DNA of 64,000 nucleotides from a virus: IMG/VR virus record IMGVR_UViG_3300028392_000053, positions 20,532 to 84,531 of that record; one strand, given 5' to 3'. Position 1 is the stretch's first letter; each line of letters begins with the position of its first letter. A program made the position numbers and the translations under genes. A model generated the notes under the pieces. The model made no database searches. It saw only the letters and a list, made by a program, of their open reading frames with translations, and was not told where the DNA came from. This document shows, piece by piece, positions 36,939 through 58,048 of the stretch.

Positions 36939-37030
36939 ACCCGCAGGTTCTGGTATAATCGATACCATATTCAAGAGCACCTCTCCCGGTGGTGTTTTTC
37001 AACATGGTATTGCAAATTGAAAGGAAAATT

Positions 37031-37915
37031 ATGATTGAAGTGAAATTCATTAATGGTAAATACGTTGCCAACATCAACGGCAAGGTGGTGAAGCGTGCCA
37101 ATAAATCCCACATGGACTATGTGATCCGTAAAGCCACCGGTGGTGCATCCTCGCTGGCACCGTTGGCTCTCAAGGAGTCCCGTTTCACCATCAACCAGCG
37201 GTTCGGTTTTGTCTCGGACATGGTTTCCATGTTGGTGAAAGGTGACCAGTCCTCGGTGGTAGTGTCTGGTCCTGGTGGCCTCGGCAAGTCCCACACCGTC
37301 ACCAAGGCACTGAATGATGCCGGCATGCGTGATGTTACTCTCCTCGATGAATTCGAGGTAGGTGGTAAAATCAACACCTCAAAATCCTACCGCGTTATCA
37401 AGGGTTATTCTACACCTAAGGGCCTGTACCGTACACTGTATGAAAACAAGGACGGCGTGGTTGTGTTCGATGATTGCGACTCGGTGCTAAAAGATCCGGT
37501 CTCCCTGAACCTGCTTAAAGGTGCTCTCGATTCCTACTCTCGCCGTGTTATCTCATGGCGTGCGGATATGCGTGATGAGGAACTACCACAATCCTTTGAA
37601 TTCAAGGGTCGCGTGGTGTTTATCTCCAATATCTCCTCTGATTCGATGGACCAAGCCATCATCACCCGTTCGATGGCGGTTGACCTGACAATGACAACCG
37701 AGCAAAAGGTCGAGCGTATGCGCCACCTGGTGTCCCTCCCAGAGTTTATGCCTGATTATTCAAAGACAGAAAAGTCCGAGGCTCTGGACCTGATTGACAA
37801 CCTCCAAGATGAGGTGAAAGAACTTTCTCTCCGTACACTGATCCAGACTACCAAGATTCGTAAGTCTGCCGGTGCAAAGTGGAAAGACCTTGCAGAATAT
37901 ACCATCTGCGGTTAA
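37031..37915 (+). CDS. AAA+ ATPase
   Basis: GPGGLGKS Walker A, VFDDCD Walker B, LLKGALDS and FISN motifs. Confidence 0.8.
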   Translation: MIEVKFINGKYVANINGKVVKRANKSHMDYVIRKATGGASSLAPLALKESRFTINQRFGFVSDMVSMLVKGDQSSVVVSGPGGLGKSHTVTKALNDAGMRDVTLLDEFEVGGKINTSKSYRVIKGYSTPKGLYRTLYENKDGVVVFDDCDSVLKDPVSLNLLKGALDSYSRRVISWRADMRDEELPQSFEFKGRVVFISNISSDSMDQAIITRSMAVDLTMTTEQKVERMRHLVSLPEFMPDYSKTEKSEALDLIDNLQDEVKELSLRTLIQTTKIRKSAGAKWKDLAEYTICG

Positions 37916-38034
37916 TAGGAGAAAATTATGGACATTCGTTGGACTTATATGATTAATTGGTTAAAGGACCGCACCCACGTTCTGCCGGTCATTCCAGTTA
38001 AACGCACTCACATATACAAAATAAAGGTGAAATA

Positions 38035-38217
38035 ATGAGAACAAAATCCAATGAGATGGCATCGACCATTTCCCACTCTGAGGATTGCATCCTCGAGGTG
38101 CAACACCGGCTGGAAAAACAAAACAATCCACACAATGAAAACCTGCTGGCAGCCATCCAACAGGCGCTGGACATCCTTGCTGACGTTTATTATGACCTAA
38201 GGGAAGACAATGAGTAA
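38035..38217 (+). CDS. hypothetical protein
   Basis: AAGGTG RBS; overlaps the next ORF. Confidence 0.5.
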   Translation: MRTKSNEMASTISHSEDCILEVQHRLEKQNNPHNENLLAAIQQALDILADVYYDLREDNE

Positions 38218-38431
38218 ATTTAAAAACCTGATAATCGATGTTGAATCCTGCATTACCAATGGCGATGCATTCGAGGACATTATTGCATTCGTGAGACACA
38301 CCACTGGTTGTGATGAAAAGACAGCCACCGACCTGGTGTTCCAGGTGGAGGGTCAACTATGCACTGAGGAAGAACAGGACTATTGGATAACAGGAGAACC
38401 TATTCCGAATGAAAATGAATTGATGTTGTAA
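38210..38431 (+). CDS. hypothetical protein
   Basis: MSKFKNLIIDVE start with RBS. Confidence 0.55.
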   Translation: MSKFKNLIIDVESCITNGDAFEDIIAFVRHTTGCDEKTATDLVFQVEGQLCTEEEQDYWITGEPIPNENELML

Positions 38432-38486
38432 AGAAACAACAGTGAGTCACCAGGTGGTTGCCAGGTGGCTTTTTTTGAGTTATAAT
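38424..38486 (+). promoter_or_regulatory. early promoter with TGTTG-N8-CAACA operator, firing into a non-coding region
   Basis: TGTTG-TAAAGAAA-CAACA, 16 bp gap, then TTGCCA-N17-TATAAT. Confidence 0.75.
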
Positions 38487-38839
38487 AGATGCATGGTTCG
38501 AACAGCACACTGGGGATGGACGTGGCGGCTGCCTGATGGATTAATCCAGTCTAATCCAGTGCATATTCCAGTATACCACTGCGGTGCTCTGAATGGTACT
38601 CTACCAGACCATCACCGGACACGCTGGAACGTGCTGTGGTCGTGCTGTGGTACCACTGTGGTACTCTGAGGCTCGCTGAGAATATTTCAGGGCTTGGCAG
38701 CCAGACACTAAGTCCCACTGGTACTTACACACCAACGACACACCGCGACACAGCCAGCGACATATGCAGTATAATGCATGTCGCATCCGTTACATATGCG
38801 CTATAATGCATACTGGTTTCCCAAACACATTCCAAAAAG

Positions 38840-38871
38840 ATATCCACAACTTATCCACAGCTTTATCCACA
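38840..38871 (+). promoter_or_regulatory. three tandem DnaA boxes (candidate origin element)
   Basis: ATATCCACA (38840), TTATCCACA (38851) and TTATCCACA (38863). Confidence 0.7.
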
Positions 38872-38879
38872 GATTTTTT

Positions 38880-38940
38880 TGTTGTTTTTTCACAACAAAC
38901 GCAAATATTCCATTGCCATTCCTACCAGTACCGCTATAAT
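38880..38940 (+). promoter_or_regulatory. early promoter with TGTTG-N8-CAACA operator
   Basis: TGTTG-TTTTTTCA-CAACA, 15 bp gap, then TTGCCA-N16-TATAAT. Confidence 0.75.
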
Positions 38941-38947
38941 ACTCTAC

Positions 38948-39154
38948 ATGATGAAACAAAACTTCTTCCCTACTCTCAATTCTGCTCTCGAATCTGAGGG
39001 ACTGCTGGAATCTTGGGCACTTAATTTCCCTCCACTTTCTTATGATTCCACGTACTCTTACACTTTTGATGATGGTTCAAAGCATGGTCATTATGTCTCT
39101 CTTTATCGTGATTCTGGAGGTCGTTATGAACGTCCGGTTCACTATAAGCGGTAA
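38948..39154 (+). CDS. hypothetical early protein (probably leaderless)
   Basis: ATG follows TATAAT after a 7-bp gap; YVSLYRDSGGRYERPVHY motif. Confidence 0.6.
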   Translation: MMKQNFFPTLNSALESEGLLESWALNFPPLSYDSTYSYTFDDGSKHGHYVSLYRDSGGRYERPVHYKR

Positions 39155-39195
39155 GGTGAATACTTGACCGGAGAAATGGATTACTTTTCTCTTAC

Positions 39196-39224
39196 TTGCC
39201 ATTCTTCTTTGGAACCTGTATAAT
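39196..39224 (+). promoter_or_regulatory. early promoter
   Basis: TTGCCA-N17-TATAAT, with AATACTTGACCGG half-site upstream. Confidence 0.75.
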
Positions 39225-39253
39225 AGACTCTATTGATTGATAAGGAACTCTCT

Positions 39254-39439
39254 ATGAAAATTACTACTGCTATCTCCATTCTCGAAAAAGAACGGAACTT
39301 TCTTGGTCTCGGTTTTCTTGAAGTCCTACAGGACATCCAGAAACATGGGAAAATGGTTTATTCTGAAAAGACTATGGTTGCATTCCATGTTTTTATGAAC
39401 GAAGGTGCTAAACTCTTTGCTACGGTGGAGGAAGAATAA
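39254..39439 (+). CDS. hypothetical protein
   Basis: MKITTAI start after TAAGGA RBS. Confidence 0.6.
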   Translation: MKITTAISILEKERNFLGLGFLEVLQDIQKHGKMVYSEKTMVAFHVFMNEGAKLFATVEEE

Positions 39440-39660
39440 TGTTTTTCAATATCTTTCGTTTTTATTCTCGGTCGAATACTTCCGCAGTATTCACTAACAT
39501 ACCTATTCATTTATTAAATGAGTTTCGCTCCGTATATCCAGGGAAATACAAGGTTCGGTATCGTGGACCTAGGGCACATCGGAAAAATGAATTTCCAAAT
39601 AATCGTGCATCATATTGTCTGATGAAGGACGCAAAAACTTTCTCCGCTTATACCTATTGA
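39439..39660 (+). CDS. hypothetical protein
   Basis: KVRYRGPR motif; TAATG coupling with the upstream ORF. Confidence 0.55.
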   Translation: MFFNIFRFYSRSNTSAVFTNIPIHLLNEFRSVYPGKYKVRYRGPRAHRKNEFPNNRASYCLMKDAKTFSAYTY

Positions 39661-39822
39661 TGGAAGTATATAAAATGAACGAACTCGAAACACTTCAGGC
39701 ACGTGCAAAGTCTATTTTAGAATCCCAAGCACATTGGAAAAGCTGCCAAGATGGCTCTTATGAAATGGCTCTCCATAATTTGGGCTATTCTGAAATATTA
39801 GAAAAAATTAAGGAATTATCAA

Positions 39823-39984
39823 ATGAAAGATTATAAAGAATATTTTGATTATCTCGTTGCACTACGGGATTCCGGTGAAACCAATATGTGGGGTGCGGCT
39901 CCGTACATCCAACGGGAATTCGGTGTTACATACCAAGAAGCTAAGGAAATCCTGCTGGCATGGATCAAATCATTCGAGAAATGA
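39823..39984 (+). CDS. hypothetical protein (LRDSGETNM motif)
   Basis: Manual translation MKDYKEYFDYLVALRDSGETNMWGAAPYIQREF...; AAGGA RBS. Confidence 0.6.
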   Translation: MKDYKEYFDYLVALRDSGETNMWGAAPYIQREFGVTYQEAKEILLAWIKSFEK

Positions 39985-39999
39985 ATACTTCCAGTCCAC

Positions 40000-40028
40000 T
40001 TGCCAAGCACCAAGAAATCTGGTATAAT
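40000..40028 (+). promoter_or_regulatory. early promoter
   Basis: TTGCCA-N17-TATAAT. Confidence 0.75.
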
Positions 40029-40059
40029 ACACACACAAACAAACTTTAAAGGAAATATT

Positions 40060-40470
40060 ATGGGCACTCGTTCACTCACTTTTGTTTACACCGACCACTA
40101 TGGCTCTGAGACTGGTCCTGAACCAATCGTCAATATGTACCGTCAGTTTGATGGCTACCCCTCTGGTCATGGGCTTGAACTCTCCGAATTCTTAAATTCG
40201 TTTGAAGCCATTACCAATGGCATTCCCTTTGGTGATACACGGAAACTGGCAAACGGAATGGGATGCTTGGCTGCCCAACTCATTGCACATTTTAAACAGT
40301 CTGTCGGTGGCTTTTACATCTACCCTGTGACCTCCAAAGATTGTGGTCAAGATTATGAATACCATGTTTACTCTGACCGTATCACCGTTTATGGCTACGA
40401 TAAAGAACACCTGTTCACTGGTCCATGGTCCGCTTTTACTGAATTTTGTACTGAAAAGGAGAATGCATAA
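40060..40470 (+). CDS. conserved phage early protein (MGTRS...DGYP family)
   Basis: MGTRSL, YRQFDGYPSGHG and ANGMGCLAAQLIAHFK motifs. Confidence 0.7.
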   Translation: MGTRSLTFVYTDHYGSETGPEPIVNMYRQFDGYPSGHGLELSEFLNSFEAITNGIPFGDTRKLANGMGCLAAQLIAHFKQSVGGFYIYPVTSKDCGQDYEYHVYSDRITVYGYDKEHLFTGPWSAFTEFCTEKENA

Positions 40471-40700
40471 TGCCGTACGTAAACACCTATATTGAAGTTG
40501 ATGATGTTCTTGATGAACTCTCTGATGATGAACTTATCGATGAATTGAAACGCCGTGGAAAAGATTACAATACACAGTTTGTCGATGGTGATGAAATGCG
40601 TATGGTTCTCCAAACTCTCTATGAAAAACGTAGGATTGGTAAGGATTATCAATCCGAACTGGACCAATTGATTTACGGAATTCTGGGTAAAATTGTATGA
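40470..40700 (+). CDS. hypothetical protein
   Basis: GGAG RBS; DDELIDELKRRG. Confidence 0.6.
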   Translation: MPYVNTYIEVDDVLDELSDDELIDELKRRGKDYNTQFVDGDEMRMVLQTLYEKRRIGKDYQSELDQLIYGILGKIV

Positions 40701-40927
40701 ACGAACGACTTAAAAAATTGATGGGTCTAACCCTAGATGAGAAATTCTCTGGCACATGGTCAAGAATGGATATGCAAGACTTGGAAAAGTTTGCTGACGG
40801 ATTTGCTGACTTGATTATTCGGGAATGTATGGATATTGCATGGCGGCATACGCCTGACACAGAAGAATGTGAATATTCTTGGTTAATTCACGATAAGATT
40901 AAACAATATTTCGGAGTTAAAGAATGA
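40697..40927 (+). CDS. MNER-family small protein
   Basis: MNERLKKL...FADLIIREC...YFGVKE. Confidence 0.65.
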   Translation: MNERLKKLMGLTLDEKFSGTWSRMDMQDLEKFADGFADLIIRECMDIAWRHTPDTEECEYSWLIHDKIKQYFGVKE

Positions 40928-41346
40928 TTGAAGATGATGAATTTGAAGATGGCACTTTTACAATTAAGTATGCCAATGTAATAAAGCAGAAAGATTTTCT
41001 ACCGCTTACCCGCACACTTGCTATGGACCTGTCGGAGACTGGTTATATGCGACCAGGTGATTTTCTAAAGTCACTCACTGATGGTGATGTATCGGCTCTC
41101 CTTACGATTGCTGACAATGACGAAAACCCACGCCTTGAAGAAATTCTACTGATTGCTGAAATGTTGGCTACCGGTGAAGGCCTTGAACAATCAAAAAATG
41201 CCGATGAAATTACACTCCGAATGAATACATTCTGTGGTTTCCTTGCTATTGAAGGACTCAAGCGGAAAGGTATAGTGAAGGTTTACTATGATAATATGTC
41301 ATTTGGTGAAGATTTTGGAAATAAAATTATTGTTGAAAAACTATGA
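40924..41346 (+). CDS. hypothetical protein
   Basis: Coupled ORF; IEGLKRKG..VYYDNMSFGED. Confidence 0.6.
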   Translation: MIEDDEFEDGTFTIKYANVIKQKDFLPLTRTLAMDLSETGYMRPGDFLKSLTDGDVSALLTIADNDENPRLEEILLIAEMLATGEGLEQSKNADEITLRMNTFCGFLAIEGLKRKGIVKVYYDNMSFGEDFGNKIIVEKL

Positions 41347-41573
41347 CACTCCCTATAGAACGAACAAATGCGGTGACTAGGACTCAAAAGTTCCTATATG
41401 ACCTACTTGATCCAAAGAAAACTCCACGTGTACCACTCTCTGTTCGGAAAGATGCAAGGTCATTACTCCGTCACTACCCATCCGAATTTGAAATGAATAT
41501 GATTGCAGACCGTGAAGATACTGAAGGTAATAATGGTATCTCATATAAAGTTTTTGGAAAAGGATACGAATAA
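41343..41573 (+). CDS. conserved phage protein (MTLPxER...LLRHYP)
   Basis: MTLPIERTNAV...TPRVP..VR..ARSLLRHYP motif. Confidence 0.65.
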   Translation: MTLPIERTNAVTRTQKFLYDLLDPKKTPRVPLSVRKDARSLLRHYPSEFEMNMIADREDTEGNNGISYKVFGKGYE

Positions 41574-41736
41574 TGTATTGGGCTATTCTAGTAATTTCCA
41601 CAATGACAACATCAGTTATTGCATATGTTGGACATTTTGAAAAAGAATCTGATTGTAACAAGGCTGTGATTGAATTGAAAACACAAAATTTGCCTTATTC
41701 AACTAAAATTGCATGTGTGCAGATGGAAGCTAAAAA

Positions 41737-42454
41737 GTGAACGAACGAATTAAACAACTTGCTCTACAGGCTGGATGGGATTTGTGGGAAGGTAGAGCAC
41801 AAGCGGATATGACTGGCTGTGAGACCGAATTACAAAAGTTCGCCGAGTTGATTGTGGCAGAATGTTTGAAAATTGCTAAAAACAGAGAAGACGAGTTTGA
41901 AAGTGCCGGCTTCCTCGAAGAATCAAATGCAGTAGGCAATGTGGCATATCAAATTTCACGACAATTTGGAGTTGAACGATGAACGAACGAATTAAAGAAC
42001 TTGCTGAACATGCAAACTACTTGGCGACAGAGAAAGAATTTCCATATGATGAGGATTGGTTTTATCTCTATAACAAAAAGTTCGCCGAGTTGATTGTTAG
42101 GGAATGTGCTAACATTGGTGAACGATATGCCGACGGCAACTACGAAGTTTATAATCAGATTTTAGCACATTTTGGAATTGAGGAATGAACGAACGAATTA
42201 AAGAATTGATGAACAAGGCTACAACTATTGAAGAACATGGTTGGGGTGCCAGTTATGAAAATTTTGATAGACTTAAGTTCGCCGAGTTGATTGTTAGGGA
42301 ATGTGCTAAAATTTGTATTGAACAGAATGTATCTAATCTTGATTTGGATGTTATTCGTGAGTCTGGCAAATTTACTTTACAGGATCTTGCCACTAAATCG
42401 TGTGGTGAGAATTTGTCTAAACAGATTAAGAAACATTTCGGAGTTGAAGAATGA
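41737..42454 (+). repeat. three tandem paralogous MNER-family genes (41737-41982, 41979-42188, 42185-42454)
   Basis: Shared MNERIK.L / KFAELIV.EC / FG(V,I)E blocks; exact 35-bp DNA repeat at 42078-42112 and 42275-42309. Confidence 0.85.
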
Positions 42455-42669
42455 ACATGCCCGTCATACCTGACCATGTATTCAAGATGTGGAATGATCC
42501 TAGATTTGAAATTCTAGCAGAGGTCGATAAACTATTGAATGGCAGCCGTATATGGGCCGGCCAGGATTGGACTTATAATCCAATTCATCCTGTCAAGTAT
42601 ATGCCCGTGGCTAATAAGATTCGCAAGGCATTGGATGAACTCCATAAAGAATATGGAATTGAAGAATGA
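42451..42669 (+). CDS. hypothetical protein
   Basis: Coupled ORF ending YGIEE like the MNER family. Confidence 0.55.
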   Translation: MNMPVIPDHVFKMWNDPRFEILAEVDKLLNGSRIWAGQDWTYNPIHPVKYMPVANKIRKALDELHKEYGIEE

Positions 42670-43100
42670 GATTTTTTCTTGATACTGAATTCAATGGATT
42701 TGGTGGTAAACTTATATCGATGGCTTTGGTGCCAGAGAATGATACGTTTCCCGAATTCTATAAAGAACTGGAGATGAATGACCAGTTAGAACCATGGGTG
42801 CGTGATAATGTGGTGCCTCACCTTTTTCAGCCTCCATGCACACACCATGAATTCCAGCAAAGCCTTGCTAACTATTTGTGGAATAATAAAGAAGAAACAA
42901 TCATTATTGCAGACTGGCCTGATGACATTCGATATTTTTGTGATTCACTCATTACAGGTCCAGGTATGATGTTGAGTCTAATGTTCAATATTAAATTTGA
43001 ACTCGACTTTGGTATTGAATACGAATCATTGGTGCCACATAATGCACTTTTTGATGCTAGAGCGATTCGTGATTTCTATATGAAAAGAGAAAATAAATGA
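42666..43100 (+). CDS. 3'-5' exoribonuclease (DEDDh, Rv2179c-like)
   Basis: FLDTEF, LISMALV and HNALFDARAI motifs. Confidence 0.8.
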   Translation: MRFFLDTEFNGFGGKLISMALVPENDTFPEFYKELEMNDQLEPWVRDNVVPHLFQPPCTHHEFQQSLANYLWNNKEETIIIADWPDDIRYFCDSLITGPGMMLSLMFNIKFELDFGIEYESLVPHNALFDARAIRDFYMKRENK

Positions 43101-43438
43101 GCCTCGATGTTGATTTGATGATAGTGCAACCCACTTCCGTTTACTCCGACAATATTACACATAATCTAGGTAAAATGGCCGGAGAAGTTAAACTCTCAAA
43201 TGGCCTGACCCTGTATGATGTGCTGTGGAGACCGGATGAGCACTCCTTGAAGTTTGCGAAAGATATATCCGAACTTCTGGATGAAGGATGGAATATTCTG
43301 CTATCAGACCCAAAACACTTTATGACATTCAATCCAGATAATGGATGGGGTTCATATGAGGGACTGGAGAAATTCGTATACAAGTATCGTAATGCATGTT
43401 GGGATAATCCTGATGCTGAACTGAGTATATCAAGATGA
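43097..43438 (+). CDS. conserved phage hypothetical protein
   Basis: MSLDV, NITHNLGKMA and NPDNGWGSYEG motifs. Confidence 0.65.
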   Translation: MSLDVDLMIVQPTSVYSDNITHNLGKMAGEVKLSNGLTLYDVLWRPDEHSLKFAKDISELLDEGWNILLSDPKHFMTFNPDNGWGSYEGLEKFVYKYRNACWDNPDAELSISR

Positions 43439-43911
43439 ACAAAAAACCTAATCTGTACATGATGATTGGTGTACCAGGTTCTGGTAAGTCCACATGGATA
43501 AAAAACCAAGAGTTTTGGATGTCCGATTGTGTATACATTTCTACCGACAAATATGTTGAGGAATATGCGGAGAGTGTTGGTAAAACTTATACCGAAGTGT
43601 TTGAAGAATATATGCCAATTGCCGTTGCAAAAATGGCAGATGCAGTAAATGTCGCACGTGATGAAGGAAAGAACATTATCTGGGACCAAACATCTACTAC
43701 AATCTCCACAAGGGCGAAGAAATTCCGAATGCTCCCGGAATATTATGCAATTGCAGTGGTTTTTCGGATCCCGGGGCCTGAAGAACTTCAAAAAAGACTT
43801 GCCAACAGACCAGGAAAAGTGATACCATCGGATGTACTTCAATCGATGATTGATGGTTGGCAAGAACCAACCGAAGATGAAGGCTTTAAAGAAATTTGGA
43901 AGGTACCATAA
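43435..43911 (+). CDS. AAA_33 / polynucleotide-kinase-like P-loop kinase
   Basis: GVPGSGKSTW, ISTD, WDQT and PTEDEGF motifs. Confidence 0.8.
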   Translation: MNKKPNLYMMIGVPGSGKSTWIKNQEFWMSDCVYISTDKYVEEYAESVGKTYTEVFEEYMPIAVAKMADAVNVARDEGKNIIWDQTSTTISTRAKKFRMLPEYYAIAVVFRIPGPEELQKRLANRPGKVIPSDVLQSMIDGWQEPTEDEGFKEIWKVP

Positions 43912-44307
43912 TGTCAAAAAAACTTGAAATTGATTATGAAACGGCTGAGCGTATCACTTTGCTTAGACTCAAAGACCACCAAGCATACCTCAAAAAAGAA
44001 TTGAAAGACTTTAAAAAAGGTGCATATTTGCACCCCGAAGATGTGTGTGACAACACGTTACTGATTGAGGCACTTAATAGAGTTATTAAATATTACGGAG
44101 GTTAATGATGGCTAAGTCTAAGAACATTATTTTAAATCACGAACAGATTGAAAAACTGTATGAGATTGCACAACACTTCAAAGACATTAAACAATTTGAA
44201 GTTGAAACTGACCATTCATCCGGTATTGGTACATCTGTTCGTGTGAAGTTTGACCTATTCGACAACAAAGACACAACTATTGATATCACTGATGTGAAGG
44301 ACTGGTA

Positions 44308-44733
44308 ATGAGACAAGAACTAGATAAAAAACTGTGTAAAGATTATCCAAAGATTTTTGCTAATCGTTTTGGTGACATGAAAGAAACTGCCATGTGTTGG
44401 GGTTTCGATTGTGGTGATGGTTGGTACCCACTTATCAATAGACTTTGCAGTGAGATTCAACATCACCTCAATAGAAATGCAAAGGAAGGAACTCCACAAT
44501 TCGTTGCATCCCAAGTAAAAGAAAAGTATGGTTCTCTACGATTCTATGGTGATGGTGGTGATAACCGAATCAACGATTTTATTTGGTTTGCCGAATCTAT
44601 GTCAACTATCATGTGTGAAACATGTGGTGCTCCAGGTAAACGCCGTGGTCATGGATGGATTTACACTGCATGTGATACACACGCCAAAGAACAAGATTTG
44701 ATTGATAATACTGAGGTTAACGAAGATGAATGA
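44308..44733 (+). CDS. conserved phage hypothetical protein
   Basis: CGDGW, QVKEKYGSLRFY and CETCGAPG motifs. Confidence 0.7.
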   Translation: MRQELDKKLCKDYPKIFANRFGDMKETAMCWGFDCGDGWYPLINRLCSEIQHHLNRNAKEGTPQFVASQVKEKYGSLRFYGDGGDNRINDFIWFAESMSTIMCETCGAPGKRRGHGWIYTACDTHAKEQDLIDNTEVNEDE

Positions 44734-44968
44734 AAATTTTAAAAGATTAGCCGAAGAAGCCGGCTTTTGTTTTTGGGAAGATGAGTCTTGGCGACCAGAA
44801 GGTCAAGTGATTGATTGGTCTTCCAATTATGAAGAAGAATTCAAAAAGTTTGGTGAATTGGTTGTACGGGAATGTGCCAATGAACTAATTAAATGGAAAG
44901 ATGAACCTTTTCCATATGATCCAGGTTTTGGTGCAATTCTAATTAAATCACTTTTCGGAGTTAAATGA
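44726..44968 (+). CDS. MNER-family small protein
   Basis: MNENFKRLAEEAG...KFGELVVREC...FGVK. Confidence 0.6.
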   Translation: MNENFKRLAEEAGFCFWEDESWRPEGQVIDWSSNYEEEFKKFGELVVRECANELIKWKDEPFPYDPGFGAILIKSLFGVK

Positions 44969-45198
44969 TGGCGGCTCAAGGCTGGCGTAAGCGTCAAATT
45001 GAAAATGTAATTATAAAATCTGACATCAATCAACTGTTGCAACCTATGTTAGGTCGTATTGAATTGGTTGATGCATGGTGGAATTCCGAGAACAAAGCAT
45101 TTGATGGAAAAACACCTGATGAGGTGTATCAAACTGGTGAGGACGGACGGAAACATGTTTACCAATACGTTCTTGGTTCTTCCGATGGGTACTGGTGA
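44965..45198 (+). CDS. Xre/MbcA antitoxin C-terminal-like protein (tentative)
   Basis: WWNSENKAFDGKTP motif resembles the toxin-binding domain. Confidence 0.45.
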   Translation: MMAAQGWRKRQIENVIIKSDINQLLQPMLGRIELVDAWWNSENKAFDGKTPDEVYQTGEDGRKHVYQYVLGSSDGYW

Positions 45199-45200
45199 GT

Positions 45201-45263
45201 TGTTGTAAAAAAACAACAAAGGGCAATCTTTATGGTTGCCTTTTTTTTGGTTTCTGGTATAAT
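45201..45263 (+). promoter_or_regulatory. early promoter with TGTTG-N8-CAACA operator
   Basis: TGTTG-TAAAAAAA-CAACA, 17 bp gap, then TTGCCT-N16-TATAAT. Confidence 0.75.
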
Positions 45264-45293
45264 AGAACCATACACAGCAACAAAGGAACTAAA

Positions 45294-45545
45294 ATGCGTA
45301 CAAAACAACTGATTTGGGGTCTGAACAATACTCAGAAATTCCGTGCTATTGTGAACGGTGTTGGCTTCATTATGAAAGTGAAAGACCTTGAAGATAAGTT
45401 TGTGTTTACTACACAAAGGGTTGCTGTATGGAATGCATTGGCAACCTGTGCAAGGGAAGATGTTAGTGGTTTTGGTACCACATACACTTACTATGATGAT
45501 AAGATGGTGGCTACTAAGGTGGATATCCAGGTTAACCTTCTCTGA
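45294..45545 (+). CDS. hypothetical early protein
   Basis: AAGGA RBS after the promoter. Confidence 0.6.
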   Translation: MRTKQLIWGLNNTQKFRAIVNGVGFIMKVKDLEDKFVFTTQRVAVWNALATCAREDVSGFGTTYTYYDDKMVATKVDIQVNLL

Positions 45546-45618
45546 AGGATGGACATACCTACTTATGCAACAAACAAGAATGGAAAGAGGTGAATATGGA
45601 TATAAACTGGTACATGAT

Positions 45619-45682
45619 TGTTGTTTCTATGCAACATATCTACCAAAAAATGGTTGCCATGTGGCAAAAAATGTGATACAAT
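45619..45682 (+). promoter_or_regulatory. early promoter with TGTTG-N8-CAACA operator
   Basis: TGTTG-TTTCTATG-CAACA, 17 bp gap, then TTGCCA-N17-TACAAT. Confidence 0.75.
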
Positions 45683-45696
45683 AGAAACATCTTATT

Positions 45697-46868
45697 ATGG
45701 AGAACTTTATGAATCGTAATGCAAAAGCATTCGTCCAAGCCGCTACTGAGATTTTTGGCGAGAATGCAATTTTGAGCCGTGACCAAATTCAACACGTTGT
45801 TGATGAACGTTCTGTTCCTTATCCCTTCTGGTTTGTTACCCGTCAAGAATTCCGTTCGAATCGTGGCCAATATCGTTTGCCTGATGCACCTGATACCGTG
45901 CGTCCTGTTGCAACCACAACTGTTGTTGAAGAAGCCTCAACTGTTGATATGGCACAAACTGCAACCGTTCATGTTCTCCGTCAAAAGAAACTTGAAGACC
46001 ATGCAGACACTTCTATTCCCGAAAAATACCAAGGCTATGTTCCTTTTGGTTTCTACAAAGACCTGACTTCAATCGTGCTATCACAGGAATTCTTCCCTGT
46101 GTTTATTACTGGTATGTCAGGAAACGGTAAGACACTGATGGTTGAACAAGTGTGTGCTACACTCAAACGTGAATGCATCCGTGTGAATATCTCCGTTGAG
46201 ACTGATGAATCTGACCTGATTGGTGGTCCAACACTGGTCGATGGTAACGTGGTGTACCGTGATGGTCCTGTTATGACTGCCATGAAACGTGGTGCAATCC
46301 TATTGATTGACGAAGTTGACCGTGGCTCCAACAAACTGATGTGTCTCCAAGGTATTCTGGAGGGCAAACCTTACTTCAACAAAAAGTCTGGCGAGTACAT
46401 TTATCCAAAACGTGGCTTCAACGTTGTTGCCACCGCAAACACCAAGGGCCGTGGCTCCGAAGAAGGTCGCTACCTCTCACAAATTCTTGATGATGCGTTC
46501 CTTGAACGTTTCAATATTACCGTAGAACAGGAATATCCTGAAGCCAAAGTCGAACTCAAGATTCTGAAACATTATTGAATGATGATGAGTTTGCGGAGAA
46601 TCTTGTAAAGTGGGCTGATGTTATCCGTAAAACATTTGCCGAAGGTGGTGTTGATGAAATTATCTCTACTCGCCGTTTGGTACACATTTCAAAGACCTAT
46701 GCAATCTTTAAAGATCGTCAAAAGGCAATTCAACTCTGTGTGAATCGTTTTGACCAAGAAACCAAGGATTCTTTCCTTGACCTGTATTCAAAGGTTGATG
46801 TTAAAGTTGCAGAGGCAAATGCCGGACCTGTACCAACATATTCACCTAATGATGAAGTACCATTCTAA
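45697..46868 (+). CDS. CobS/MoxR-like AAA+ ATPase, frameshifted near 46570
   Basis: GMSGNGKT, LIDEVD, TANTKGRG and LDDAFLERF; C-terminal ISTRRLVHI domain continues in a shifted frame. Confidence 0.85.
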
Positions 46869-46870
46869 AC

Positions 46871-46923
46871 TGTGGTATTTTAACAACAGAGTGGTTGCCA
46901 CCAGACTGCCACTCTGTTACACT
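46871..46923 (+). promoter_or_regulatory. early promoter with operator, embedded in an inverted repeat
   Basis: TGTGG-N8-CAACA, 6 bp gap, then TTGCCA-N17-TACACT. Confidence 0.6.
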
Positions 46924-46959
46924 TGAATCTGGTAAAACTCTTTTTAAAGGAAATATATT

Positions 46960-47319
46960 ATGCGTACTACTACTAAAATTAATCGTCACGAAAAAATTGC
47001 TTGCGTTATGCTCTCTGGCAAGCCTGTCTCCCCCGCAGAGATTGAGTCCTGTTTCAAAGGCAGTGACCAAGAAGGTGTTCTCTATCGTTTGTCGACCAAC
47101 ATTTACAACATCCGCAAAGATGGTGGAATTGTCCGTGTTTACAAAGATGGTCGTAAAGTGACTGGATATCAATTGGTTAACTTTCAAGAGTTTTCTCCCG
47201 AAGGTCGCTATATTGGTCGTGTACAACCCGTGCAACCTGTTGCACCTGTTGTACCAGTTAAACGTCAGAAGCAAAAAGCTACTGAAACCAACGATATTGC
47301 ATCAACTGAAACAGTTTAA
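46960..47319 (+). CDS. putative winged-helix DNA-binding protein
   Basis: YRLSTNIYNIRKDGG...KDGRKVTGYQL; AAGGA RBS. Confidence 0.5.
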   Translation: MRTTTKINRHEKIACVMLSGKPVSPAEIESCFKGSDQEGVLYRLSTNIYNIRKDGGIVRVYKDGRKVTGYQLVNFQEFSPEGRYIGRVQPVQPVAPVVPVKRQKQKATETNDIASTETV

Positions 47320-47672
47320 TGGCATTGGTGAAACCACCATCACATTTTAGGCAGGCTCCACATGATGGAGCCTCGCCTTTTGACGATTTCAACTTCACAT
47401 ATAAAGATGTTGTAATCGGTGGTAAAATGGTGCAAGGTACGATCCGTGTGGCTGAACATAAGGTGCTCTCATATGGAACGGAAGAAGAATTTCGACAATT
47501 TTTGAAAACATCGATGGCACATCAAATGGCTGAATACATGATTTCAAATGGTCTTGTTGAATTTACACAACTGCGAGATAATATAACTCGTGATATCCTT
47601 GTGAGGTCCCGTTGTTACCTTGCACCAAGCGATCAAGTTAAAATATTGAGGATGCATTATGCTGGTACTTAA
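47319..47672 (+). CDS. hypothetical protein
   Basis: Coupled ORF. Confidence 0.55.
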   Translation: MALVKPPSHFRQAPHDGASPFDDFNFTYKDVVIGGKMVQGTIRVAEHKVLSYGTEEEFRQFLKTSMAHQMAEYMISNGLVEFTQLRDNITRDILVRSRCYLAPSDQVKILRMHYAGT

Positions 47673-48225
47673 AGAAATTGATAAAGAACATGTACTGCAA
47701 GTAAAGAAGGTTTTGTTTGAAAACATTAACTTTTTGCTGAATGGACTTCCAGAAACTCTTAGAGATTTCTTGAAGAATAATGCCATTCTTAGTGGTGGTG
47801 CCATTCCTTCACTCATGCATGATGAAACACCTAAAGACTATGATTTGTATTTACGGCATTCACACGACATAGCTTTTTTCAGACGATATGTAAATTCGGA
47901 TTTGGATAAAAATTTGATTCAAGATGCTGATGAAAAATATGTTGATGTGCAGATTGAAGGCAAATTGGTGACTGCAAATGCCACCACATTTAAAAATTCA
48001 ATACAAGTGATTACACTTGCTAATGCTGATTCACGTAGCACATTTGATTTTGTACATTGTATGCCTTGGTATGGAATATCAGACAACAAATTACATATAT
48101 CTCAAAAACAATACAATGCAATTCTTAACAAACATTTGATTAAGAATGAGCATCCAAATGCGTATGCACTATCAAAAAAACGTGTTGAAAAATACACAGC
48201 CAGAGGATGGAGTTTTCCCAAATGA
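47659..48225 (+). CDS. Pol-beta-type nucleotidyltransferase-like protein
   Basis: LSGGAI...PKDYDLY and TFDF motifs; ends RVEKYTARGW. Confidence 0.65.
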   Translation: MLVLKEIDKEHVLQVKKVLFENINFLLNGLPETLRDFLKNNAILSGGAIPSLMHDETPKDYDLYLRHSHDIAFFRRYVNSDLDKNLIQDADEKYVDVQIEGKLVTANATTFKNSIQVITLANADSRSTFDFVHCMPWYGISDNKLHISQKQYNAILNKHLIKNEHPNAYALSKKRVEKYTARGWSFPK

Positions 48226-48523
48226 AACTTAAATGTGGACCAAAGGACTATTCAGGTAAAATGCAATGGCACAATTGGTTCGCATGGTTTCCTGTCACTG
48301 TGGCAAACAATGATTGTCGATGGCTGGAAACTGTTGACAGACGCGGTAACATAGAGTATACTCCAGATGGTCGACAATACTGGAATTTTGAATACAAAGC
48401 GAGGACAATTTAACATGGAACTCTTTCACTTTTATCTTGATGCATGGAAATTTTGCAAAGACAATCATATTGATTCGAGCAATATTAAACGTCAAGATTG
48501 GGCAACATGGGCAGTAGAATTCA

Positions 48524-49723
48524 ATGAGTCGGAAGTTTAGAACTCTTAAAAGAAAGTCTTCTGTTTCGAAAAGAATCGATAGCTGGCTTGCCTCGCTTTC
48601 AAGAAGTGTCGGTAAATCTGGTGGAAAATCAAGAAAACAAAACCAAAAAAATGAAATTATATGGGCAGGTCAAATGACTAAGAAAAAACGTCTACAATGG
48701 TGGAGAAACGAAGGCATACAAATGAATGAAGAAAAAGCGAATGATATTTTCCTAGGTGCAAACGATATTGCAGACCTGTTTTTGACAAAGATTTTGCAGG
48801 AACGTTTTGAACGTGGTCTTGAAACCTTTCAAAAGCGTTTGAGCATGTATGCGTCAAAGAAAGAATGGATGGATTATATTGACACCATTCAAGACATCCG
48901 CCGTTTTCAATTTGAAAATGGCAATGGCTATTTCTTTGATGATGAATCACTGTCATACCTGTATTTCAACATTCACTCAACACACGTATCTGTTGAATTG
49001 GTTGGTGATGATGAATTCGTCAGAGACTATGAAACACGATTCGAAAAAGATTTTGAGTTCGTAACAAACCAAATTGAATGGATTTATTCCGCTGATGGTT
49101 CTTCTATTGAAATTCCACTCCGTCATGACCGTATGCCCGTTGAAGAAATGTATCCGTTTCTTGAAGGTCAAACACTCGCCGAATTTTATAACGGCTTCAT
49201 GCACTCATCTGCATCTATTCTGTTGTTGATTGGTCCACCTGGAACAGGAAAGACCACATTCATTCGTGGGCTACTACAACACTCTGAAGCATCCGCGATT
49301 GTATCTTATGATTCAAATGTTCTGGAGAAAGATTATGTTTTTGCCAACTTCATTGAAGGTGAAAAGAATGTTCTGGTTCTAGAAGATGCTGATATGTTCC
49401 TAAAAGCACGTTCTGAAGGTAACACAATGATGCACAAATTTCTAAACGTTGGTGATGGTCTTGTGACTACACGTAACAAGAAGCTAATCTTCTCCACAAA
49501 CCTCCCATCCATTCGTGATATTGATTCTGCACTTATCCGTCCTGGTCGTTGCTATGACATTCTACACTTTGATGAATTAAACCAAGAACAGGCTCAAAAG
49601 TTGGCATCAAAAGTTGGAACAAAATTGAACCTTGAACGTACTTCATGGTCAATCGCCGATGTGTTCTTTGAACAGAATACAAATATGAAAAAACCAATTC
49701 AAAACAAAATGGGGTTTGTATGA
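48524..49723 (+). CDS. AAA+ ATPase
   Basis: GPPGTGKT, VLEDAD, STN and DSALIRPGRC motifs; start may be at 48721. Confidence 0.85.
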   Translation: MSRKFRTLKRKSSVSKRIDSWLASLSRSVGKSGGKSRKQNQKNEIIWAGQMTKKKRLQWWRNEGIQMNEEKANDIFLGANDIADLFLTKILQERFERGLETFQKRLSMYASKKEWMDYIDTIQDIRRFQFENGNGYFFDDESLSYLYFNIHSTHVSVELVGDDEFVRDYETRFEKDFEFVTNQIEWIYSADGSSIEIPLRHDRMPVEEMYPFLEGQTLAEFYNGFMHSSASILLLIGPPGTGKTTFIRGLLQHSEASAIVSYDSNVLEKDYVFANFIEGEKNVLVLEDADMFLKARSEGNTMMHKFLNVGDGLVTTRNKKLIFSTNLPSIRDIDSALIRPGRCYDILHFDELNQEQAQKLASKVGTKLNLERTSWSIADVFFEQNTNMKKPIQNKMGFV

Positions 49724-49947
49724 TATATGAAATTTCTGACCACTATCAACAATATCAATACTTTTTAGAAGTGAATGATATACGTGAACTCAAACATGTG
49801 AAAATCATGACCAAATACCAAGGCGCTAAGTTTCCTGATGCCATACAGTCTAGGGTTGAGTTTTTCCTCAATCAAGATGAATGGAAGCGACTGGTCGAAG
49901 CCGTAACCAGCACCAAGTGACCTAGGCGCTCCTAGAGCGTTCCAGAC

Positions 49948-50009
49948 TGTTGTTTTTTTGCAACAAACGTGAAATAATGCTTGCCATTTTACTGTGGTTG
50001 TGTTATAAT
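49948..50009 (+). promoter_or_regulatory. early promoter with TGTTG-N8-CAACA operator
   Basis: TGTTG-TTTTTTTG-CAACA, 15 bp gap, then TTGCCA-N17-TATAAT. Confidence 0.75.
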
Positions 50010-50014
50010 ATATT

Positions 50015-50272
50015 ATGAATGCAAACTATTTTCGTATGTTAATCTCGGATGAGATTCGTGAAACACTTATGTGGTCCGGTCTCGCTGAGAATTTCCGTGA
50101 TATTCGAACCAAAGAAGTTGATTCTAAGGGTAAAACCTTCTATCGACTGAAAATGATTGATGGTGAGATTTTGGTGTATTCACCAAAAGTTATTTACATC
50201 AATGGCCACAAAACTCATTCAGTGAATGAGGCTAAACGTCATCTACAGTACAATTACATTGAAAAACTTTAG
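50015..50272 (+). CDS. hypothetical protein (probably leaderless)
   Basis: ATG follows TATAAT after a 5-bp gap. Confidence 0.6.
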   Translation: MNANYFRMLISDEIRETLMWSGLAENFRDIRTKEVDSKGKTFYRLKMIDGEILVYSPKVIYINGHKTHSVNEAKRHLQYNYIEKL

Positions 50273-50294
50273 ACTTGGTATTCTATGGAATCCA

Positions 50295-50309
50295 TGTTGC
50301 ACCGCAACA
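50295..50309. promoter_or_regulatory. PhaR-type operator candidate
   Basis: Perfect palindrome TGTTGC-ACC-GCAACA (TGC-N3-GCA core) upstream of a phasin-like ORF. Confidence 0.55.
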
Positions 50310-50388
50310 AAATATCCTATATAATCTAAGTAGTAATGCTAATATGATTACTGCTTTTATTAACCCTCGCTAAATTTAGGAGAAAAAA

Positions 50389-50607
50389 ATGTTCGCAACA
50401 GACAAATTCATCGATACCGTTCAAGGTTCCAAAAAGTATTTCGTGTCCACATTTATTACGGATGAAAACATTCGCAAACCACTTAACGCATTTGTTGATG
50501 CACAAACTGCATTCACGAAACAGATCGTAAAATCCTTCACTGATATTTCGACTCGCGTTACAGAGGAAGCAACAAACGCTGTGCAAAAAGCGGCCAAGGT
50601 AGTTTAA
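50389..50607 (+). CDS. phasin-like amphipathic helical protein
   Basis: 72 aa, Ala/Thr/Lys-rich amphipathic helices (FIDTVQ..K, AFVDAQTAFTKQ); strong AGGAG RBS. Confidence 0.55.
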   Translation: MFATDKFIDTVQGSKKYFVSTFITDENIRKPLNAFVDAQTAFTKQIVKSFTDISTRVTEEATNAVQKAAKVV

Positions 50608-50608
50608 T

Positions 50609-50752
50609 ATGATGAAGGTGTTCAAAAAACTATTTGTGAGTACATATAGTTCCGAATTAGAACAATTTATTTTATCTAGACATCCAAAAAACATTGGTGA
50701 CATTGAACGATTGACTATCGAATACAGTAGAAAATCCAAACAGTGTAACTAA
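50609..50752 (+). CDS. 47-aa protein (DUF3563-like, tentative)
   Basis: Manual translation MMKVFKKLFVSTYSSELEQFILSRHPKNIGDIERLTIEYSRK... Confidence 0.45.
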   Translation: MMKVFKKLFVSTYSSELEQFILSRHPKNIGDIERLTIEYSRKSKQCN

Positions 50753-50939
50753 TTGCTAAATAATATATCTTAGACAATTTTGGTTTTTTATTATGGACAA
50801 TTTTGAGTTATTCCTAGATCAGGTAAAGATATATCAAGAAATCGAAAAACACCGAAAGAGAAGGATTTATGCCTTGACTTTTGGTGTTTTTTGTTTTATG
50901 ATGTTGGTTGGGTTTTATTTTTTTTATTAAGAGGTTATT

Positions 50940-51236
50940 ATGACTACATTCGTTGAAGTTAATTCCGTTGCACCTAAAAACTGCAAACTCATTGTCAATC
51001 TAGACAATGTAATTGAGATTGCACCATTGGTTTCGGGTGGCTGTGTTCTCTATTTTGCCGCACAAGAAGCCGGCGGTCCACGCACCATGACAGTATCAGA
51101 TAGCTATACTGCATTCATGCAATTCGCAATGCAAACAGTTTCGGCTGATGATATTGCAAAACGCTTTCCAAAAGTCAAGAAAGATATGCCAACAATCAAG
51201 GCACAAGAAGACGGTAAAGGTGTTGAATTTAATTAA
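50940..51236 (+). CDS. hypothetical protein
   Basis: GAGG RBS. Confidence 0.6.
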   Translation: MTTFVEVNSVAPKNCKLIVNLDNVIEIAPLVSGGCVLYFAAQEAGGPRTMTVSDSYTAFMQFAMQTVSADDIAKRFPKVKKDMPTIKAQEDGKGVEFN

Positions 51237-51239
51237 TTC

Positions 51240-51527
51240 ATGTATCATACACTAGAAAACATTTTTGGTTGGATTAAAAATGATTATCGTTCTAATCGTT
51301 TTCGTTTTTTTGTTGAGTTGCTTGCTTGGGGGATTAGTATTGGTTGTGCAATCACCATGGCTGTTACAGTCCCCAATCCACCTCTATTGGCGTTGTATCC
51401 TATCTGGATTATTGGTTGCTCCTTGTATGCTTGGGCTAGTTATACTCGGAAATCTTTTGGGATGCTGGCTAACTACCTGCTCTTGGTGACAATTGATTCG
51501 GTTGGTTTGATTAGAATGGTATTATGA
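51240..51527 (+). CDS. three-TM membrane protein
   Basis: Hydrophobic helices; RKSFGMLANY motif. Confidence 0.6.
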   Translation: MYHTLENIFGWIKNDYRSNRFRFFVELLAWGISIGCAITMAVTVPNPPLLALYPIWIIGCSLYAWASYTRKSFGMLANYLLLVTIDSVGLIRMVL

Positions 51528-52324
51528 GAATTAAAATCTTCATTGTAACGTGGCAGGATCCAGTAGCACTGGAAGTAAACCTTCATACGTTATTTGAAGG
51601 TTTTAATCCTATACCAGAAGGTGTTGACATTCACGTTAACGTCATCAACAATCATACAAATTTCACAATCGATCCACGGTTTGCACCACATGTAAATGTG
51701 ATACACAATCGTGGAACTCCAGACTTTGCAACCGCAATGCTTGCACGTATGTGGAACATGGCAATCATTCACGGTTTCAAAAATCTAAATGAGCCTGATG
51801 CAGATATTGTTGTCACTGTCCAAGATGATACAGTATGGAATTATGATTGGATTCCACAACTACTCAAAGTGATGAAAGACTTTGACTTCTATGCTGATGA
51901 TGCTGGTGATATGGTGTGTGCATATACACCAAACGCAGTAAAGAAGATTGGCATGTGGGATGAACGCTTTCACTATGGATTTGGTGAAGGTGATTATTTC
52001 CTTCGAGCAATCAAATATTTACCAGAAAAATCTTCAATCAATGATTTTGCACATGGTCGTGTATGGAAACCAACACAACATCTCGCTAAACGTCCAGAAC
52101 CACATTCTGAACGGTATGAGGAACAATCCCGTTCACACAAATACAGAGAACTTTCGTGGGCTAATTTCCTATACAAATGGAAATTTACCGAAATGGAGGG
52201 CAGATGGCCTGAAAATATTCAAGAAATGGTATTGACAACACCTATTGTTTCTGCTACAATACTATATCCCTATTTTGAAATGGACATTGAAAACCTTAAA
52301 GAAAAAGGTTATGTCGTACCGTGA
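51524..52324 (+). CDS. glycosyltransferase family 2-like
   Basis: LARMWN, VQDD and IGMWDERF..GFGEGDYF motifs. Confidence 0.65.
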   Translation: MRIKIFIVTWQDPVALEVNLHTLFEGFNPIPEGVDIHVNVINNHTNFTIDPRFAPHVNVIHNRGTPDFATAMLARMWNMAIIHGFKNLNEPDADIVVTVQDDTVWNYDWIPQLLKVMKDFDFYADDAGDMVCAYTPNAVKKIGMWDERFHYGFGEGDYFLRAIKYLPEKSSINDFAHGRVWKPTQHLAKRPEPHSERYEEQSRSHKYRELSWANFLYKWKFTEMEGRWPENIQEMVLTTPIVSATILYPYFEMDIENLKEKGYVVP

Positions 52325-52906: not shown

Positions 52907-53091
52907 ATGATGAACCTGAATATGATGTGGTGATTGATGTGTTACAGAAACACCATGATAAACTATGGCAAATGACAAAACGAAATATGAATTCTGAATT
53001 TCTTGGCATGGGTATCATGGATGATATCCGTCTAAGCCAAATGGATGAATTGAAAGAAGCAATTAAACTTTGGATAGCAAATAAAAAATGA
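52903..53091 (+). CDS. hypothetical protein
   Basis: Coupled ORF. Confidence 0.5.
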   Translation: MNDEPEYDVVIDVLQKHHDKLWQMTKRNMNSEFLGMGIMDDIRLSQMDELKEAIKLWIANKK

Positions 53092-53552
53092 GCAATTTAC
53101 ATAAACACGCTTTGATGGAATTTAAAGCCGCCAAATGGCTTGATGACAATGGTAATTATATTGATGATATGCAGGAAGCTATTTGCACTCATGTATTAAA
53201 GTTGCTTGAGGTCTTTTCAGCCGAAGAACACTCAGGCTCATCCGCACCATACGCCGTCGACCTGTTCAAGAAACTAGCCATGTTTGAACCTGTTGCACCG
53301 TTAACTGGTGAAGATTGGGAATGGGTGGAAGTAGGTGATGGTATATTTCAAAACAAACGTTGCTCACATGTATTCAAACAAGCCGATAGATTTGATGGCC
53401 AAGCATATGACATTGATGGTATCATCTTCTATGATTGGTACACTGATGAAGATGGTAATAAAAGTAAATCGTACTTTACAGGTAGAGATAGTTGTGTTCC
53501 AATAACTTTTCCATACATACCAACCAAAGAATATAAAGAGAGAGTTGAATGA
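53088..53552 (+). CDS. conserved phage hypothetical protein
   Basis: HSGSSA, PLTGEDWEW and QNKRCSHVFK motifs. Confidence 0.7.
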   Translation: MSNLHKHALMEFKAAKWLDDNGNYIDDMQEAICTHVLKLLEVFSAEEHSGSSAPYAVDLFKKLAMFEPVAPLTGEDWEWVEVGDGIFQNKRCSHVFKQADRFDGQAYDIDGIIFYDWYTDEDGNKSKSYFTGRDSCVPITFPYIPTKEYKERVE

Positions 53553-57390: not shown

Positions 57391-57407
57391 TATTACCAAA
57401 ATATCAC

Positions 57408-57436
57408 TTGACAACTGAATAAAAACCTGCTATAAT
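57408..57436 (+). promoter_or_regulatory. consensus sigma70 promoter of tmRNA gene
   Basis: TTGACA-N17-TATAAT. Confidence 0.85.
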
Positions 57437-57442
57437 AGTAGT

Positions 57443-57740
57443 TATGGTTGTATGAAGCAACTAGAAAAGTGTTCTGGACGGGGGTGCAAATCCCCCCACC
57501 TCCACCAAAGTAATATTTTCTGTAGTAGACCCAGAAAGCAGATGCCGATACTATGGTTAGTGTTACTTTGATGGGGGTGTACTCAGTATTCGACAGAGCA
57601 ACAAGTACAGAAGTGGACAACTCATCAGAGAAGATGTAAAAACTAAAACCAAGTAAACGCAAACGACTCACAGTTCGCATTGGCAGCCTAAACGCTGACT
57701 AGGGTTTCGGTAGGTTTCCTCGTAACAGAATAACCTACCA
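57443..57740 (+). ncRNA. ssrA: circularly permuted two-piece tmRNA, tag ANDSQFALAA
   Basis: Acceptor piece ends GGGGG-TGCAAAT-CCCCC-CACCTCCACCA (57507); coding piece starts GGGGGTG (57573) giving a G3:U70 Ala stem; tag frame 57659-57691. Confidence 0.92.
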
Positions 57741-58048
57741 TTTTAGTAAACACACACTCACACACAAGGAGAAATCTTATGAGTAAAACACCTTTTGAAA
57801 TCCGTTTAAGTCTTTTAGACATGGCAAAGGACTTGGTAACACAAGACTTTCACATTAAAAAAGAAATGCTAATGGAACAATGGCATCGTAGTTCTGAAGT
57901 TGATAAATCGCTTCCCGTACCAGTATTGGTAGCGTATCCTACTGAAAAAGAAATTATTGCCAAAGCAAAATTACTTAATGCTTTCGTTTCTAACGAATAA
58001 TCATTAAAAGGGTTTCGGTAGGTTTCCTCGTAACAGAATAACCTACCA
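57701..58048 (+). repeat. 40-bp exact direct repeat hairpin
   Basis: AGGGTTTCGGTAGGTTTCCTCGTAACAGAATAACCTACCA at 57701-57740 and 58009-58048. Confidence 0.92.
57779..58000 (+). CDS. conserved T4-like hypothetical protein
   Basis: PFEIRLSLLDMAK...YPT..EII.KA..LN.FVS; CA-rich leader and AAGGAG RBS. Confidence 0.7.
   Translation: MSKTPFEIRLSLLDMAKDLVTQDFHIKKEMLMEQWHRSSEVDKSLPVPVLVAYPTEKEIIAKAKLLNAFVSNE

Follow-up and report, generated by a model that had tools for sequence, protein, structure and literature searches.

A candidate PhaR-type operator conserved with a small helical protein gene across viral lineages

Does a bacteriophage keep one of its genes under the operator through which bacteria control their PHB genes, and does the product of that gene act at PHB granules? 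This question is raised by a short locus in a 64,000-nucleotide stretch of viral DNA (the window), taken from an IMG/VR virus record of 84.5 kb with an estimated completeness of 50% and a G+C content of 34-45%, for which a preliminary description had proposed a phasin-like gene under a PhaR-type operator. Direct reading finds the box, TATAAT, AGGAG and both ORFs where that description had placed them. The box, TGTTGCACCGCAACA (50295-50309), consists of TGTTGC and GCAACA around the spacer ACC, and its centre precedes the predicted start by about 30 bp. It had been called a perfect palindrome; this holds for the 6-bp arms, and the 3-nt spacer ACC makes the repeat as a whole not fully palindromic. 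Inside the box, on the plus strand, lies the -35-like hexamer TTGCAC (50297-50302), followed after exactly 17 bp by TATAAT (50320-50325). The latter belongs to the -10 element TATATAAT (50318-50325, within CTATATAAT at 50317-50325, both on the plus strand), of which TATATA.T is invariant in 31/31 aligned relatives. As TTGCAC agrees with TTGACA at only 3 of 6 positions, a scan with the consensus promoter missed this one. With its perfect TATAAT, the predicted promoter is of the host type and sigma-70-like.

Downstream on the same strand, a 63-nt leader (50326-50388) carries the Shine-Dalgarno sequence AGGAG (50378-50382) 6 nt before the ATG of a 72-aa ORF, hereafter o72 (50389-50607). AGGA is invariant in the aligned relatives, and this ribosome site is a strong one. 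Contigs from RNA libraries cover the region, one of 1669 nt corresponding to 50079-51559; such contigs cannot show start, strand or transcription. We also considered TATATAAT as the late-promoter class of the phage and rejected it: in the complete relative G001 only 3/19 copies lie at most 120 nt upstream of ORF starts, as against 22/35 copies of the late-type motif ATAAATA, which represents the late class. A 137-aa ORF on the minus strand (50326-50739) overlaps o72; nothing speaks for it, and it is likely to be spurious. The 47-aa ORF that follows o72 (50609-50752, plus strand) had been described as DUF3563-like, a label that could not be kept, as no Pfam family matches it at E<=1. Given the lack of a family match and its retention in only 2/80 related loci (tblastn, best 80 of 123), we place it outside the conserved unit. 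PHROGs contain no match for o72 or its small neighbours, this ORF included.

The first part of the question concerns the identity of the box. According to PMC12849132, the PhaR consensus of R. eutropha is YTKNTGCRNYGCANMAR, a degenerate palindrome built about one central base, with near-perfect conservation at positions 1-4 and 7 counted from the centre; PMC12542648 gives the S. meliloti motif as YGCRNYGCR with AT-rich arms. The window box fits the R. eutropha consensus YTKNTGCRNYGCANMAR at 16/17 positions. Its core, TGC-ACC-GCA (50298-50306), agrees with TGC-RNY-GCA with a free central base.

Boxes of the same kind are found at bacterial PHB genes. In three Oxalobacteraceae genomes, chosen through their tmRNA pattern, 6/12 Phasin_2 loci have boxes of the strict pattern TGTTGC/TTGTGC-RNY-GCACAA, typically one adjoining the -35 and another at the start site. 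The phaP promoters of the Burkholderiales genomes G010 and G209 read TATTGCATTGCAACA ... TTGACA-N17-TAAAAT ... TTGTGCACCGCATCA. The first of these boxes is identical in 15/15 letters to the box of one viral locus (L025), and the second differs from that of another (L005) by a single swap of two letters. The pattern TNKTGCRNYGCAMNA occurs 8 and 9 times in G010 and G209 (3.0 and 3.5 Mb), compared with 3 and 2 times for a reversed-pattern control, and lies upstream of phaP, phaC and the PHB depolymerase in both genomes. This 15-mer therefore marks the PHB regulon there; in one genome each it also precedes citrate synthase, a CoA-transferase/ETF-QO pair and an AMP-binding enzyme. The PHB-depolymerase box of G209, TGTTGCAACGCAACA, differs from the window box solely at the free central base. 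The consensus fit, the same sites at bacterial PHB genes and the retention of the box with the gene all agree with the proposal of a PhaR-type operator, and comparison strongly supports this reading of the box as a candidate PhaR site.

Conservation across viruses was examined on 123 viral stretches encoding relatives of o72, the best 80 of the 123 being kept as loci. The window and 66 of the loci yielded 48 distinct upstream regions, among which TGC-RNY-GCA is present in 28, an N3 box without RNY in 2 and a box with N4 spacing in 8, while 10 have no box. In 13 more distant loci, the box is fused to the -10 in six and absent from seven. Over 30 viral boxes, T1, T4, G5, C6, G10, C11, A12 and A15 each carry about 2 bits of information, which corresponds to positions 2-4 and 7 in centre-based numbering; the value is 1.1-1.3 bits at the R/Y positions (position 1 from the centre), 0.2 at the centre and mostly below 1 bit in the flanks. 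PMC12849132 gives the same profile for R. eutropha PhaR sites. The centre of the box lies 18 bp before the -10 in 20 sequences, 10 bp in 10 sequences and 6 bp in the distant group. This distance varies yet always stays within the polymerase footprint, which fits a repressor site and does not fit a fixed -35 element. Against the operator count the lack of a box in 10/48 promoters and in 7/13 distant loci, the N4 spacing of 8/48 promoters, which misfits the PhaR consensus, and the single box of the phage, compared with two in bacterial phaP promoters.

The association of box and gene is specific to this gene. TNKTGCRNYGCAMNA matches once in the whole 84.5-kb record, within the window, and once in the viral genome G002, both times at an o72-type promoter. 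Box plus TATA is the mark of the o72-gene promoter in 4/4 viral genomes examined, including the 166-kb G001, and the few other pattern matches in these genomes all lack the TGC-RNY-GCA core. When nine neighbouring genes were tested, 63/80 loci (best 80 of 123) shared none with the window and 17/80 shared some. On a second backbone, examined at two loci (L035 2155-2910 and L021 2107-2898), the o72 gene lies directly downstream of phoH; a homing-endonuclease-like gene precedes phoH. As most loci lack the neighbours of the window, the box, TATATAAT, the hairpin described below, the ribosome site and the gene move together between backbones. Co-conservation of box and gene in relatives, proposed as a check, is thus found in 28/48 distinct viral promoters and on two unrelated phage backbones.

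Counts within the window say less. The core TGCRNYGCA occurs once where 3.4 copies are expected, so the nine-base core alone carries no meaning. The longer TNKTGCRNYGCAMNA occurs once where 0.07 are expected, with at least one copy in 6/100 shuffles, and a search of the window for further degenerate boxes (at most 3 mismatches) gave 12 matches versus 12.3 expected, that is, none. The within-window count alone makes a modest case, and the weight of the box rests on its position and conservation.

The leader contains a further conserved element. Directly after the -10, a hairpin with a stem of 10+1 bp is predicted at 50328-50356 on the plus strand (ViennaRNA -9.4 kcal/mol, z -3.5). Single-sequence folding places a hairpin at the same position in 34/36 distinct leaders, with z<-2 in 28 of them; RNAalifold on the mixed leader alignment gave no pairs, the arms being misaligned, and single-sequence folding was used in its place. 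The arms vary by lineage yet remain complementary, covarying across the window and L002-L081, and a GC(T/C)NAAT-like loop motif is kept. The L029/L036 group has no hairpin and a leader of 28 nt. Such a pattern speaks for an element acting at the RNA level, be it in stabilisation or in regulation. With the start predicted some 7 nt downstream of the -10, transcription would begin within the 5' arm of the hairpin, so the promoter geometry given here is provisional.

What is known of the phage constrains the host that might supply PhaR. The window contains T4-type replication genes (gp32, gp59, RNase H and SegE), together with ThyX, ribonucleotide reductase, CobS/CobT-like ATPases, PhoH and a homologue of the anti-Thoeris protein Tad3, and from this gene content we conclude that the phage is a T4-like myovirus. 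The Tad3 homologue is a 154-aa protein (53088-53552, plus strand) that matches, at E 2e-33, the Pfam family Tad3, which inhibits type I Thoeris. Metagenomes of lakes and fresh water from 12 studies contain close DNA, and the GenBank phages searched have no DNA match to the region and no protein match. A two-piece (permuted) tmRNA at 57394-57745 on the plus strand scores 122.8 bits with Rfam beta_tmRNA and 112.7 bits with tmRNA_permuted, and encodes the tag ANDSQFALAA (ARAGORN); the model at this position includes its own TTGA...TATAAT promoter region. On the strength of the beta_tmRNA score, the host points to Betaproteobacteria, and no finer. A BLAST search with the tmRNA against 401 Burkholderiales genomes gave short matches only, the nearest tag being ANDEQFALAA in G010 and G209. 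Cupriavidus, which the preliminary description had named, is unlikely as the literal host in view of the phage's G+C content of 37-39%, the lake metagenomes and a tmRNA that indicates Betaproteobacteria only. Permuted tmRNAs with unusual tags (ANDATYHVQLAA, AREMSS... and ANESQFLAYGT; ARAGORN) also occur in L090, L092 and L094, contigs of Noviherbaspirillum, Herbaspirillum and Duganella genomes; further tmRNA-like matches in G004 suggest that such odd-tag copies may be on mobile elements.

PHB_acc_N, the domain taken to mark PhaR, is present once each in G010 and G209 and in 30/41 sampled Burkholderiales genomes (29/40 without the unpublished G032). It was not found in the viral genome of the window record, in G001 (99% complete) or in G002. 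That the host of the phage, seen here only through its tmRNA, carries PhaR is an assumption on our part.

The second part of the question concerns the protein. The o72 family comprises 45 close clusters and 215 representatives at E<=1e-3, all unnamed, and is absent from GenBank phages. A search of 185,579 species genomes with a narrower family alignment and the family signature F[VI]DAQTx[YF][TA]K found no cellular relative, so that, as far as this search extends, the family is confined to viruses. One apparent relative, P0046 (4090 aa, 12 matched stretches), was rejected as a repeat artefact; by eye, it looks like a P-loop and leucine-rich-repeat protein. AlphaFold2 models o72 with a pLDDT of 90.6 as two helices (residues 2-22 and 26-71) joined by a turn, with a hydrophobic moment of 0.4-0.6 along the second helix, in agreement with the earlier view of an amphipathic protein. 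The predicted fold is a generic two-helix hairpin, and small size with an amphipathic, all-helical character is not specific to phasins.

Comparisons with phasins leave o72 outside the family. Against Phasin_2 (PF09361), whose cut-off is 24.9 bits, o72 of the window reaches 15.4 bits, and the highest score among 83 distant members is 22.3; weak matches are found for 15/43 close members at E<=1 and 5/83 distant members at E<=0.01. Among NCBIfam models, TIGR01841 weakly matches 9/81 members, TIGR01985 3/81 and TIGR02131 1/81, all below cut-off, and the window protein itself matches none of the NCBIfam models at E<=1. Phasin models are the sole families recurring among the weak matches, and the ESM Atlas leads include a viral cluster automatically named 'Phasin family protein' (0.94), Phasin_2 (0.87) and PHB_acc (0.86). 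Aligned by hhalign with 13 real phasins, the family reaches a probability of 0.5% (E 0.12), and its profile matches no phasin gene in five Burkholderiales genomes in the reciprocal search. Foldseek of the model against the PDB returned nothing at E<=0.001, and the best hit of a PDB profile search, at E 0.39, is irrelevant. The profile and structure comparison with phasins proposed at the outset was thus negative and, since the scores are below all curated thresholds and the hhalign and reciprocal searches fail, o72 is not filed as a phasin. No significant similarity to PhaR was detected by hhalign either (probability 0.53%), and a predicted complex of o72 with the PhaR of G010 scored 0.01, which is uninformative in either direction.

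The regulation, size and amphipathicity of o72 may nevertheless suggest that it works like a phasin, and from these traits the granule-coating and store-mobilising roles of the preliminary description could follow. That o72 acts at the surface of PHB granules, in the manner of a minimal phasin, is a possibility to which we give slightly less than even odds.

Taken together, the data are best explained by a mobile phage cassette comprising a host-type promoter under a host PhaR operator, a hairpin leader and o72, an explanation to which we assign a probability of roughly 0.6. What we observe is that the box is identical in sequence to bacterial PHB-gene boxes, that it is conserved together with the gene and that it lies over the promoter; PhaR binding, repression as the direction of control and the identity of the host are what we infer from them. 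The overlap of the box with promoter elements could allow PhaR to block RNA polymerase. In a betaproteobacterial host poor in PHB, free PhaR would occupy the box over the -35 and spacer and exclude the polymerase; with PHB granules present, PhaR would be drawn onto them, the promoter would open and o72 would be made in quantity. The phage would thereby probably gauge the carbon reserve of its host before making o72. The fuller proposal, in which freshwater T4-like phages read PHB through PhaR and make an 8-kDa granule protein that remodels or unlocks the store, is held more tentatively, as something we would sooner doubt than assume.

The closest known system is the bacterial PhaR (PhbF/AniA)-phaP circuit of R. 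eutropha/C. necator and S. meliloti. The phage locus resembles it in operator sequence, conservation profile, promoter overlap and the small helical protein downstream, and by bacterial logic would share the titration of PhaR by PHB, which PMC12542648, PMC3079617 and PMC12849132 set out. The phage version differs in being viral, in having its single box over the -35 and spacer where the bacterial promoters have two flanking boxes, and in encoding a 72-aa protein that is no demonstrable Phasin_2 member, with no phage PhaR gene found. Phasins (PF09361, TIGR01841, TIGR01985) share with o72 a small, all-helical, amphipathic build, weak recurrent profile matches and PhaR-type control, whereas o72 scores below the curated cut-offs, is negative in profile-profile and reciprocal searches, and does not reach half the length of the Burkholderiales phasins that we examined (167-210 aa).

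Phage genes under host nutrient regulators are known from cyanophages, with pho boxes before pstS and phoA and NtcA sites in promoters. By analogy, a lytic phage would here too borrow a host operator of nutrient state and thereby couple a non-essential gene to the physiology of the host; the signal, unlike in cyanophages, would be the carbon stored as PHB, sensed by way of PhaR. The cassette thus appears to be a phage auxiliary gene of a known kind, under a host nutrient-state regulator, in a PhaR/PHB variant that is new. A literature search of main articles listed none that deals with phasins in phages or with viral promoters under PhaR; two apparent matches proved to contain the word 'phasing'. 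For bacteria of fresh water and soil, PHB is one of the main stores of carbon and energy, and its sensing or exploitation by phages is essentially unexplored. If correct, the proposal would provide a PHB-granule protein encoded by a virus and a viral promoter connected to PhaR, each the first of its kind and both on a lineage-hopping cassette. Phages would then gauge stored carbon, beyond external nutrients, before committing resources, and PhaR would join the short list of host regulators borrowed by phages. The locus might also offer a compact promoter that responds to PHB and perhaps, in o72, a tag of very small size for binding to granules.

Among the alternatives, the one that survives best keeps PhaR control of the promoter as a carbon gauge and makes o72 a takeover or auxiliary factor unrelated to granules. 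This would agree with the failure of every phasin homology test and with the position of the gene beside phoH, a typical auxiliary gene, on the second backbone. PhaR control need not imply a granule function either: the S. meliloti PhaR regulon extends well past PHB genes according to PMC12542648, and the boxes of G010 and G209 also precede citrate synthase, CoA-transferase and other genes. We nevertheless consider it unlikely, if a serious contender, as phasin models alone recur among the weak matches and the protein resembles a granule coat in its small size, amphipathic character and apparent abundance.

It is considerably less probable that a phage protein, possibly o72 as an autoregulator, binds the box, whose likeness to PhaR sites would then reflect convergence or mimicry. 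The box is unique to the o72 promoter in each viral genome and, as expected of an autoregulated cassette, box and gene travel without another shared neighbour. However, no DNA-binding fold can be recognised in o72, which consists of just two helices (21 and 46 residues), and the conserved and free positions of the viral boxes match those of PhaR sites, down to 15-mers identical to bacterial ones.

We regard as very improbable the idea that PhaR acts here as an activator, or that the box in multiple copies serves as a decoy that derepresses host phaZ and phaP. PhaR is described as the activator of R. eutropha phaP3 in PMC12849132, but from sites about 70 and 200 bp upstream, whereas the viral box overlaps the -35 and spacer or the -10. 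For a decoy speak the PHB-depolymerase genes of G010 and G209, which carry the box, so that titration of PhaR would release them; this leaves unexplained why the box always lies in the promoter of one gene.

There remains the repeat that the phage uses at its own early promoters. The window contains 12 such promoters of the form TTGCC-N17-19-TAYAAT (35570-49981, plus strand), and in five of them, all intergenic, TGTTG-N8-CAACA lies 14-20 nt upstream of the -35 (TTGCC). The box shares the outer half-sites TGTTG and CAACA with this repeat, and the window has an excess of the family TGTTG-N(1-14)-CAACA (13 matches versus 3.2 expected). It is nonetheless barely credible that the box represents the N8 repeat with a shortened spacer, or that it forms a weak RNA hairpin at the end of the upstream gene, because the intergenic N8 copies mostly read TGTTGT/ACAACA and keep their distance from the -35, the N8 arrangement and the N3 box coexist in both unrelated phage groups, the N3 box conserves TGC/GCA rather than the outer bases, and the N4 variants could pair over only 3-4 bp with no T-run after the box. 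The window box itself, with 5 nt between TGTTG and CAACA, lies over the -35 and has no TTGCCA; it thus differs from the N8 repeat in spacing, inner bases and position, and the objection that it is merely a short form of that operator does not apply. Several other early promoters have TTGACC..GGTC-type inverted repeats in place of the N8 repeat. At one site in the window (50004-50017, plus strand), the ATG of an 85-aa ORF (50015) follows the TATAAT of its promoter by 5 nt with no Shine-Dalgarno sequence, so that the mRNA may be leaderless; this arrangement of promoter and ATG is kept in relatives.
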